A program made the position numbers and the translations under genes. This document shows, in pieces, positions 27,015-28,690 of a DNA stretch of 64,000 nt. Position 1 is the stretch's first letter; each line of letters begins with the position of its first letter. The stretch is from Gammaproteobacteria bacterium (lineage in GTDB: Bacteria > Pseudomonadota > Gammaproteobacteria > Eutrophobiales > Eutrophobiaceae), in the NCBI GenBank assembly GCA_965222155.1, contig CBDCTH010000012.1, positions 576,001-640,000 on the forward strand. Direction: 5' to 3'. The notes below the pieces were generated by a model. It ran no database searches. It was not told the DNA's origin and saw only the letters and a program-made list of their open reading frames with translations.

Positions 27015-27532
27015 TGAACCGCCCCGGGAATTCCGGAGACCCGTTAGTTTGAGTCATGCCGCTTTGCATGACCGGTTAACCCCATCATAGTACATCTTTT
27101 CATACTCAGCCGGTGGCACGTTACCGATGGGCGCCAGCAGACGGCGATGGTTGAACCAATCCACCCATTCCAGCGTCGCATACTCCACGCCATCCAAGGT
27201 CTTCCATGGCCCCCGCTGTCTGATCACGTCCGTCTTGTACAGGCCGATGATTGTCTCCGCCAGGGCATTGTCATAGGAATCACCCATACTTCCCACGGAG
27301 GCCTCAACCCCGGCCGCCGCCAACCGCTCGGTAGACCGGATCGAGAGATACTGGCTGCCGCGGTCACTGTGATGAATCAACCCAGCGGTATCGTGCCGTG
27401 ACCACAAAGCCTGTTCCAGCGCACCCAGCACCAACGCTGTACGCAGGGAACCACTGACCCGCCAGCCCACAATCCGCCGGGCAAACACATCCACGACAAA
27501 CGCCACATAGACAAAGCCGGACCAGGTGGCCA
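27015..27532 (-). mobile_element. IS3-family (IS51/IS629-like) remnant: OrfB C-terminal half and right IR
   Basis: [57 protein letters not shown]. Confidence 0.9.
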
Positions 27533-28343
27533 GTAGAGTAAGAAGCAGGGCGTAGTCGAATATCTCCCTGCTTCTCCTCCCCGAACCGCATGTGCACCTC
27601 TCGGCGCATACGGCTCTCTATTCAAGTATGGTTTAAAGCCATAGCTACATCATGGTTGCCAGCTTGCTCTGCATTTCACTGATTATCAAAGGTCTTCACC
27701 TCTCTACCGGCAGTTACTCTGCCAAACAAACCTCTTGAACTGTTCCCCTTCGCCATGGAGCAGGGTTTCCCTGCCTCAAACTACTACGGGAACTCCGCCA
27801 GTCTACCGGTCATCGGGGCCACATTCCCTTAACATGCCGATAGACCTTCCCCAGTTCACATGCCGGACTCAAACGTATTGGTGAGCTTGCCGATCGCAGT
27901 CTTTACCCTTGCTTGCCGCAAGTCGATACGGATACCATGGTCTGGCCATGTTCTCCCCACTGGCACCTTGCAGGTCGCCGTTCGTGTGCAACCTGCATTC
28001 GGGAACGGATCCCTACTTATCATCCGTTCCAATCCATATACCACCTGTTAAGTCGTGTAGGTGGTGGTGACCTTTCAACCCATAGACACGGTTTAATCGG
28101 TTCGTGTTCCTCAACCTTCCAATACTCAGCCTGGAGACGCATCTTGGCGTAACGACTTCGCCTCACGTCCCGTTTCCCACGGGCTCCGTCACCCTGCCAA
28201 TGTACAGCAGGTCACCGCCGCTTCGGCTCACACTTTCTCATAGCAGAAAGCAGGCATCTGATTGATAGCATCCGTGTACAACTTCGATGCATTCCAAACA
28301 TGCTCAAGCTTCAGCAACGTCATCAGTGACATCTCTGAAGGCA
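27533..28343 (-). ncRNA. ORF-less group II intron (RT gene internally deleted)
   Basis: Domain V GAGCCGTATGCG..GAGAG..CACATGCGGTTCGG; domain VI ending TACTCTAC; residual ORF start LIISEMQSKLAT. Confidence 0.88.
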
Positions 28344-28690
28344 GTAGGTAAAGTCGGTTTGCCACAACTCATTCACGCGTCGGGTCGGATGCTGAAAGGT
28401 GTCTCCCGCCTGCAGCAGGATATAGGCTGGGCTGGTGATGAGGTCATAGCGCTTCAACAAGCGATACACGCTGGATTCCGATATGAAGTAACCGTGTTTA
28501 TCGGTGACGGTCCAGGCTAGTTCTCTGGGAGAGCGCTCAGGGTATTGCAGGGCAACCTCCAGACATTGTTCCTTCACCGTTTCCGGGATCTGGTTCCAGA
28601 AACGTCGAGGGGATCGGGAGGCCACCTCCAATGCCTTCAGTCCACCGTCCAGATACTGACGATACCAGCGATAAAAACTGCTGCGACTGG
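28344..28690 (-). mobile_element. IS481-like DDE transposase fragment (5' exon of the intron)
   Basis: WNQIP...SPRELA...ISESSVYRLLK..DLITSPAY...NELWQTDFTY. Confidence 0.8.

Follow-up and report, generated by a model that had tools for sequence, protein, structure and literature searches.

The window analysed here is a 64,000-nucleotide stretch of contig CBDCTH010000012.1 from a Gammaproteobacteria assembly (GCA_965222155.1). Between pieces of two different IS elements, IS-A on the 5′ side and IS-B on the 3′ side, it carries an ORF-less group II intron, and every feature of this chimera lies on the minus strand (Table 1). The arrangement is confirmed as real: the anatomy of the locus, the separate origins of its flanks, the homing position, the decay and the true assembly were each read directly from the data.

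Table 1. Features of the chimeric locus and its immediate surroundings, in window coordinates.
Feature	Coordinates	Strand	Remarks
D1 repeat copy 2	28692..29114	.	99.75% identical to copy 1
IS-A fragment ("exon 1")	28343..28688	-	HTH_32; IS481 59.7 bits vs IS3 28.2
ORF-less class A-like group II intron, 810 nt	27533..28342	-	Lacks its first 9 nt (5′ splice site)
EBS1 AGTAGG, hairpin loop	28012..28017	-	Covariation in relatives
Domain IV remnant	27621..27689	-	12 N-terminal and 10 C-terminal RT codons plus stop
Domains V and VI, branch-point A at 27539	27533..27618	-	RF00029, 57.4 bits
IS-B 3′ half ("exon 2")	27014..27532	-	95% nucleotide identity to copies in G019, a genome of the same genus
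218-aa predicted protein, directly downstream of IS-B end	26345..27001	-	Context only; no family match
D1 repeat copy 1	25933..26352	.	Context only

The intron was delimited from its 3′ end. In an Rfam scan of the window, RF00029 (DV/DVI) gave its sole group II intron DV/DVI match at 27618-27533, where the full model (1-77) scored above its gathering score of 40; the domains reported by the initial annotation are thereby confirmed. This match sets the 3′ end of the intron at 27533 (...CTAC), with the bulged A six positions upstream in the intron. No family match to D1-D4 was found at E≤1 between 26500 and 29200, where the scan returned RF00029 and a chance snoRNA only; DI-DIII are 73-77% identical in nucleotide sequence to those of ltrA-bearing introns.

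At the 5′ end, alignment of relatives from a B. pseudomallei plasmid, Bradyrhizobium, Mycetohabitans and E. coli showed that their introns start right after the D-x-T-Y codons plus one base (TAC N|GTGYGCC...). The closest relatives, namely a remnant in G019, two copies in the genome G214 and three copies from Nitrospirales MAGs, start with GTGCGCCCA GCCTTYRGAG, and the intron of the window starts at GCCTTCAGAG. It has thus lost 9 nt (GTGCGCCCA) from its beginning, and with them the GUGCG 5′ splice site; no GUGYG stands there. The last base of exon 1 is the T at 28343. Exon 2 starts with a T, as it does at the five loci initially read and at those read later, and the ligated exons would be in frame (TAC T+TG GCC, giving Y L A). 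The initial annotation had described an 811-nt intron with a non-canonical TGCC start and an uncertain ligated frame. The ORF-less intron stands; its length is 810 nt, the unusual start is a 9-nt loss, and the frame is settled by the position of the last exon base. Two other readings of this end were rejected. A GTGTG at 28233-28229, suggested by blastn alignments to plasmid relatives that open at query positions 89-116, has no GTGYG counterpart in the relatives, whose true starts follow D-x-T-Y; and a loss of 4 nt, possibly by TG slippage, gave way to the 9-nt loss seen against closer relatives.

Within domain IV, the intron keeps the first 12 codons of the RT (LIISEMQSKLAT, 27689-27654), which were checked against full-length relatives, and its last 10 codons and stop, with a deletion joint near 27656-27654, in agreement with the earlier description of this remnant. 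The distance from the start of DIV to DV is 84 nt, as compared with 1540-1549 nt in full copies, and the RT/maturase expected in domain IV of a class A intron is missing. The RTs of relatives consist of RVT_1 and GIIM without an endonuclease domain and score 334-341 bits on TIGR04416. Ribozyme homology and the RT N-terminus LIISEMQ.KLAT, which the relatives have in common, bear out the proposed E.c.I4/S.f.I1-like affiliation: judged from its sequence, the intron is a decayed relative of the E.c.I4-like clade of class A, a class name taken from PMC3552965 and applied without a class-specific model. The initial annotation suggested looking for an intact RT in the genome; none that is cognate is present, the RTs of the genome reaching at most 31% identity with one of class A.

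The genome contains four other group II introns with GIIM matches (C1:18325-18713, C12:33480-33868, C12:1283480-1283868 and C12:2848885-2849273), and three of the four matches have one in-frame TGA each. Within the clade, the RT gene has been lost from a Bradyrhizobium copy (L024), from two Nitrospirales MAG copies (L083 and L094) and from the window's intron at 27656-27654. The Bradyrhizobium copy clusters (100/100) with full-length alphaproteobacterial introns, yet its deletion joint lies within 1 nt of that in the window; by eye, GCAACATGG at one deletion endpoint is complementary to CCATGATGTTGC at the other, and a helix between them may close off the ORF loop. The deletion joints of the two Nitrospirales copies are different; these copies have intact IS3 genes as hosts and normal GTGCG 5′ ends, two features which suggest that they were mobilised in trans. 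On these sequence comparisons, the data show RT-gene loss in the clade to be repeated and independent.

The two flanks were compared with full-length IS elements in G019. The IS-A fragment is a 346-nt internal piece covering codons ~16-125 of an HTH_32+rve OrfB. Positions 28688-28344 encode SRSSFYRWY...NELWQTDFTY, ending with the TAC at 28346-28344, which is followed by a T. The fragment lacks OrfA, the left end, a native start and its own end; its truncated start abuts D1 repeat copy 2. The full copies in G019, which are 76-77% identical to it in nucleotides and 82% in amino acids, have OrfA (HTH_Tnp_1) and OrfB (HTH_32+rve), and their OrfB reads ...NELWQTDVTC F RVVGWGWYYLSTVLDD (...TDVTC F RVVGWGWYY) across the motif. 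IS481 is the top NCBIfam match of the fragment, as listed in Table 1; the full relative scores 186.4 bits on the IS481 model NF033577 (cut-off 224) and 159.8 bits on the IS3 model NF033516 (cut-off 160). It has the upstream HTH_Tnp_1 OrfA of IS3 elements, as opposed to the single-ORF organisation of IS481, and by these profile scores and gene order IS-A is an intermediate between IS481 and IS3.

The IS-B exon starts with TG GCC ACC TGG at 27532, and its frame runs on without interruption as far as a stop at 27054. It matches Pfam rve, rve_3 and rve_2 and, at 154 bits, positions 228-369 of the NCBIfam IS3 profile; the full copies in G019 have OrfA and an OrfB (HTH_21+rve) that scores 301 bits on the same profile, and from these matches IS-B is clearly a classic member of the IS3 family. 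The right end of the element is at ~27014, with many different flanks at 27015 in read contigs. When the full-length OrfB proteins of the two elements in G019 were aligned, they were 25% identical, with the motif in register and the sequences different past it. When 40 relatives were searched, the IS-B part gave matches that began exactly at the intron junction, and the matches of the IS-A part ended at 28343-28345. The flanks therefore derive from two different IS elements, as had been proposed, and the objection that both might belong to one IS is answered by the separate full copies in G019. The stronger claim of two different IS families holds for the 3′ flank, which is IS3, and not in full for the 5′ flank, which stays below the IS481 cut-off.

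No other copies of the intron, IS-A or IS-B were found in the same genome, where the initial annotation had suggested looking for further intron copies; small remnants of the IS-B end are present on C4 and C12 only. The intron has a match in one of 60 other relatives (G019, a 45-nt remnant) and in six of 399 other genomes of the class (E≤1e-10; one genome not scored). The exact 33-nt junction has 0 matches in genome contigs and in metagenome contigs. Both junctions are nevertheless bridged, with 0 mismatches, by Logan contigs of run X1, which may be the source sample (27477-27699 and 28127-28730), and of run X3 from another study, which may hold the same organism (27485-27635 and 28299-28555). 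The loose contig ends in X1, X3, X4 and X5 were read from a consensus translated by eye. They contain a relative with a full-length RT in X1 (at 27655), an intron 3′ end beside another IS3-type exon in X3, and uninterrupted IS-B (RLWVADLTF|V) in X4 and X5; uninterrupted IS-A (TDFTY|LQVVGWGWYY) was read in X5, so that X4 and X5 together hold uninterrupted forms of both elements. Record 27 of X5 (27501-27709, with 13 other letters and 8 gap letters) joins an ORF-less relative to an IS-B exon 2.

Both junctions of the chimera lie at the homologous D-x-T-Y+1 position, in accordance with the initial report of a shared DFTY site and with the insertion position of class A introns. A blastn search detected relatives in 1861 plasmid records; among 5426 E. 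coli genomes, 2316 had matches. Where junctions were read at plasmid and E. coli loci, exon 1 ended at D-x-T-Y+1 in a transposase-like frame in nine cases out of ten. The tenth locus (L036, a Novosphingobium plasmid) has a full-length relative after ...TDFSY in a non-transposase gene, with the downstream frame IRLQSNLGGGFSMDNRAYMY. EBS1 pairing there is 5/6, and the site seems to be an ectopic one mimicking the motif. The copies in G214 are in IS3-type and IS6-type genes. Copies in G214 and in a Gammaproteobacteria MAG follow ...SWRMDETY of an IS6-type gene, an assignment that rests on NF033587 (93.6 bits, a 73-aa fragment). The Bradyrhizobium copy sits at the same place in an IS-A-like gene, and its 3′ exon was not recognised. 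A 19-nt motif of the 5′ end occurs at 53 loci; the exon is of the transposase-motif type at 8 of these by regular expression and at 3 more by eye (DEAY, DITH and DIRY), and the remaining 42, with other upstream contexts, are probably other intron classes. The proposal that the intron homes to a conserved motif across IS families is thus upheld, with relatives in IS3, IS6 and IS481-like transposase genes.

A candidate basis for target choice is the EBS1 hairpin loop, N-GTA-NN, which covaries with the last six exon bases in relatives. The window's EBS1 pairs 6/6, by Watson-Crick pairs throughout, with the 6 nt at the end of the IS-A exon (CCTACT) and 3/6 with the IS-B exon of G019 (CGTTTG). Over 13 intron-exon pairs, whose EBS1 6-mers were picked by eye before scoring, pairing was 6/6 in 7 (the window's included), 5/6 in 3 and 4/6 in 3. 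These pairings point to a tie between the 5′ part of the intron and an IS-A-type target; they separate targets only modestly, since most targets suit the GTA core and the distinction falls to positions -1, -5 and -6. A second hairpin, CGAACG, which apparently pairs with the IS-B exon, was rejected as EBS1 since it does not covary in relatives.

Our preferred reading, to which we give somewhat better than even credence, is that the locus is a fossil of two retrohoming events followed by recombination between intron copies. Class A introns of the E.c.I4 type insert one base after the Tyr codon of D-x-T-Y, the region of the first catalytic Asp in DDE transposase genes, where EBS1-IBS1 pairing directs them to ...AC(N)TA(Y)N. 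One copy would have homed into the IS481/IS3-intermediate IS-A and another into the classic IS3 element IS-B; homologous recombination between the two introns would then have joined the 5′ side of IS-A to the 3′ side of IS-B. At one stage or another, decay also stripped the intron of its RT gene and its first 9 nt, and IS-A was cut short against the MITE-like repeat D1.

Several observations fit this sequence of events. An intron-bearing IS-B existed in the genus, because G019 retains (L032, G019:C1 ~2183222-2183275) the IS-B 5′ half, a G and the first 54 nt of the intron lineage, followed by unrelated DNA. This relic is complementary in kind to the chimera of the window. A second chimera was found on a plasmid of Mycetohabitans endofungorum (L025, compared with L023). 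Its exon 1 is 83% identical in amino acids to that of B. pseudomallei (of the YLLR...ANQAWALDTTY type), whereas the exons 2 are 33% identical, that of Mycetohabitans belonging to another IS3 subgroup (the WAQGRWHYLAAVLDLF type). The B. pseudomallei exon pairing is corroborated by Brucella anthropi, with an exon 2 that is 66% identical, and by other loci. The RT gene of the Mycetohabitans copy is partly deleted, with 551 nt left. Taken with the homing position on both sides, the EBS1 fit and the relative in X5, the G019 remnant and the second chimera make a crossover the best reading of the locus. Against it, neither a second intron copy nor a reciprocal product is present in the genome, and IS-A and IS-B are likewise without a further copy there; the 5′ joint lies 9 nt inside the intron and not strictly at the splice site; and the truncation of IS-A at its other end requires a further event. 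A segment-wise identity scan gave no signal of a mosaic intron, and was uninformative with references that are 18-30% diverged. The recombination between two intron copies put forward in the initial annotation is therefore plausible, not proven: the position, EBS1 and the G019 remnant agree with it, the parents were not found, and two parental copies with a crossover are, by inference from sequence, the most likely history.

Other histories account for parts of the same evidence. The 9 nt missing at the joint, the truncation of IS-A at both ends and the nature of the region, a graveyard of IS fragments and repeats, could reflect illegitimate joining, in which an intron-bearing IS-B lost its 5′ exon and 9 intron nt and was fused non-homologously to a piece of IS-A. 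The agreement at DFTY would then be chance, and we consider this quite unlikely: in an OrfB of ~920 nt, IS-A breaks no more than 1 nt away from the homologous homing site, EBS1 pairs fully with the IS-A exon, its unusual -1 T included, and the Bradyrhizobium relative occupies the same place in an IS-A-like gene. A short, 5′-truncated IS-A beside unrelated DNA, together with loss of the IS-B 5′ half, would also be explained if an RT retrohoming into IS-B had copied an unspliced IS-A::intron transcript into the 5′ exon, by 5′-exon co-conversion or template switching, with a non-homologous join upstream. We give little credence to such a cDNA event, which leaves the missing 9 nt unexplained, requires the non-homologous join and would be the work of class A RTs, which have no endonuclease domain; to our knowledge, 5′-exon co-conversion is known only from yeast mitochondria.

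Where the chimera formed is a separate matter from how. It might have formed in a different organism and been acquired complete through horizontal transfer, for which the 2.76-kb segment between the two nearly identical D1 repeats is a possible vehicle. None of the three components has another copy in the genome, they are 52-59% GC as compared with 43-44% for the adjacent orf218 and D1, and identical junctions occur in X3. We judge this unlikely, however, since the genome averages 52.9% GC and the composition is thus not foreign, the exact junction has 0 matches among genome and metagenome contigs, and the sample of X3 may just contain this organism too. Against its own proposal, the initial annotation raised a misassembly across repeated copies of the intron; this might be suspected in a genome of 12 contigs with 7.28% contamination, the more so as X1 contains a full-length relative. 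With the intron single-copy in the assembly and exact contigs from two studies spanning both junctions, it is extremely improbable.

The chimera is expected to have no function. From its sequence it is predicted neither to splice nor to move, nor to make a transposase, because it lacks a 5′ splice site and a maturase, the hybrid has no IS ends, and exon 1 is without OrfA and a native start; the only in-frame start of the exon 1 frame is a TTG at 28631. The suggestion that splicing could yield a shuffled transposase is thus not supported: the splice site is gone, no maturase is encoded in cis, no RT of the genome is closer than 31% identity, and exon 1 is an internal fragment.

In published work, E.c.I4 targets various IS3 elements at specific positions (IS629, IS911, ISEc16 and ISEc31), according to PMC3522654, which cites Han 2004 for IntA in conserved regions of IS3 elements. 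Homing to the motif across IS3 members is, on that text, already known. PMC3552965 places E.c.I4 and S.f.I1 in class A and describes class A RTs as lacking an En domain. Like these introns ("IntA" of Escherichia/Shigella), the window's intron belongs with relatives whose RT combines RVT_1 and GIIM without an endonuclease domain. It is 68-70% identical in nucleotides to E. coli introns in "IS3 family transposase" genes, loci to which no tool assigned the name E.c.I4, and it shares their insertion point (TAC G|GTGTG ... TC AGC) and LIISEMQ.KLAT. Unlike them, it is ORF-less, lacks the 5′ splice site and has exons from two IS elements; and relatives in the present comparison also use IS6 and IS481-like genes, which a literature search did not return as targets of the E.c.I4-like clade. 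The target range of the clade is accordingly extended beyond the IS3 family.

Trans-served ORF-less introns, such as those of cyanobacteria, likewise have the RT gene deleted and retain the ribozyme domains and the start region of DIV. According to PMC4424553, ORF-less bacterial introns are nearly always accompanied by a related RT in the same genome, in contrast to the distant RTs and lost 5′ splice site found here. Ectopic recombination between intron/IS tandems offers a further parallel, with a repeated retroelement as the crossover substrate: the accessible text of PMC3522654 predicts such tandems in Enterobacteriales to be recombination-prone and to cause rearrangements, and contains no description that we found of an in-frame chimera of two transposases bridged by an intron.

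As a single locus, this dead relic makes nothing and matters little. Its value is as a clean, assembly-verified case in which one retroelement has entered unrelated transposase genes at one and the same codon of the catalytic motif, and in which the shared intron provides homology for recombination between otherwise non-homologous IS elements. Recombination between copies of a retroelement is expected to leave chimeric exons as a by-product, though these are seldom documented, and two chimeras among about a dozen loci with both exons readable suggest that the process recurs. A bolder proposal, which we regard as very doubtful, is that class A introns act as portable in-frame recombination joints that swap N-terminal and C-terminal halves between IS families. 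It can be entertained because IS3, IS6 and IS481-like transposase genes are all entered at one codon phase of a shared catalytic motif. If it were true, crossovers inside the intron would exchange DNA-binding N-terminal and catalytic C-terminal halves, the hybrid being expressed while the intron still splices. This would amount to natural exon shuffling mediated by a bacterial intron and a route to new IS types, with the loci of the window and of Mycetohabitans as two of its decayed products.

The surroundings of the chimera are rich in repeats. D1 is a MITE-like repeat of ~410 bp with terminal inverted repeats GGTC(C/T)GACCCTAT and a CT-rich edge, and from these features it looks like a MITE. 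The two copies that flank the chimera are 99.75% identical. D1 also occurs inverted at 31848-32152 of the window, at C12:1285057-1287948 and elsewhere; the genome holds dozens of its diverged copies, and genomes of the same genus match its ends over 45 nt. Four copies form an array at ~800-900 bp spacing that adjoins another group II intron at C12:1283793. A tRNA-Sec gene (32210-32298, minus strand, 79 bits) adjoins the inverted copy, and the chimera may be in an island beside it. The ORFs of 299 and 244 aa at 30039-31653 (minus strand) we take to resemble a DNA methyltransferase and a partner enzyme, and the 670-aa ORF at 23556-25568 (minus strand) presumably has an ATPase-like motif. A third rve transposase is represented at 25636-25881 (minus strand) by 81 C-terminal aa (rve_3, 95 bits), with relatives of 92% and 78% nucleotide identity elsewhere on C12. 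Farther away, at 20547-20683, are three tandem 42-nt units, each with the GC-rich palindrome CATTCCGGCGCCTGCCGGAATC.
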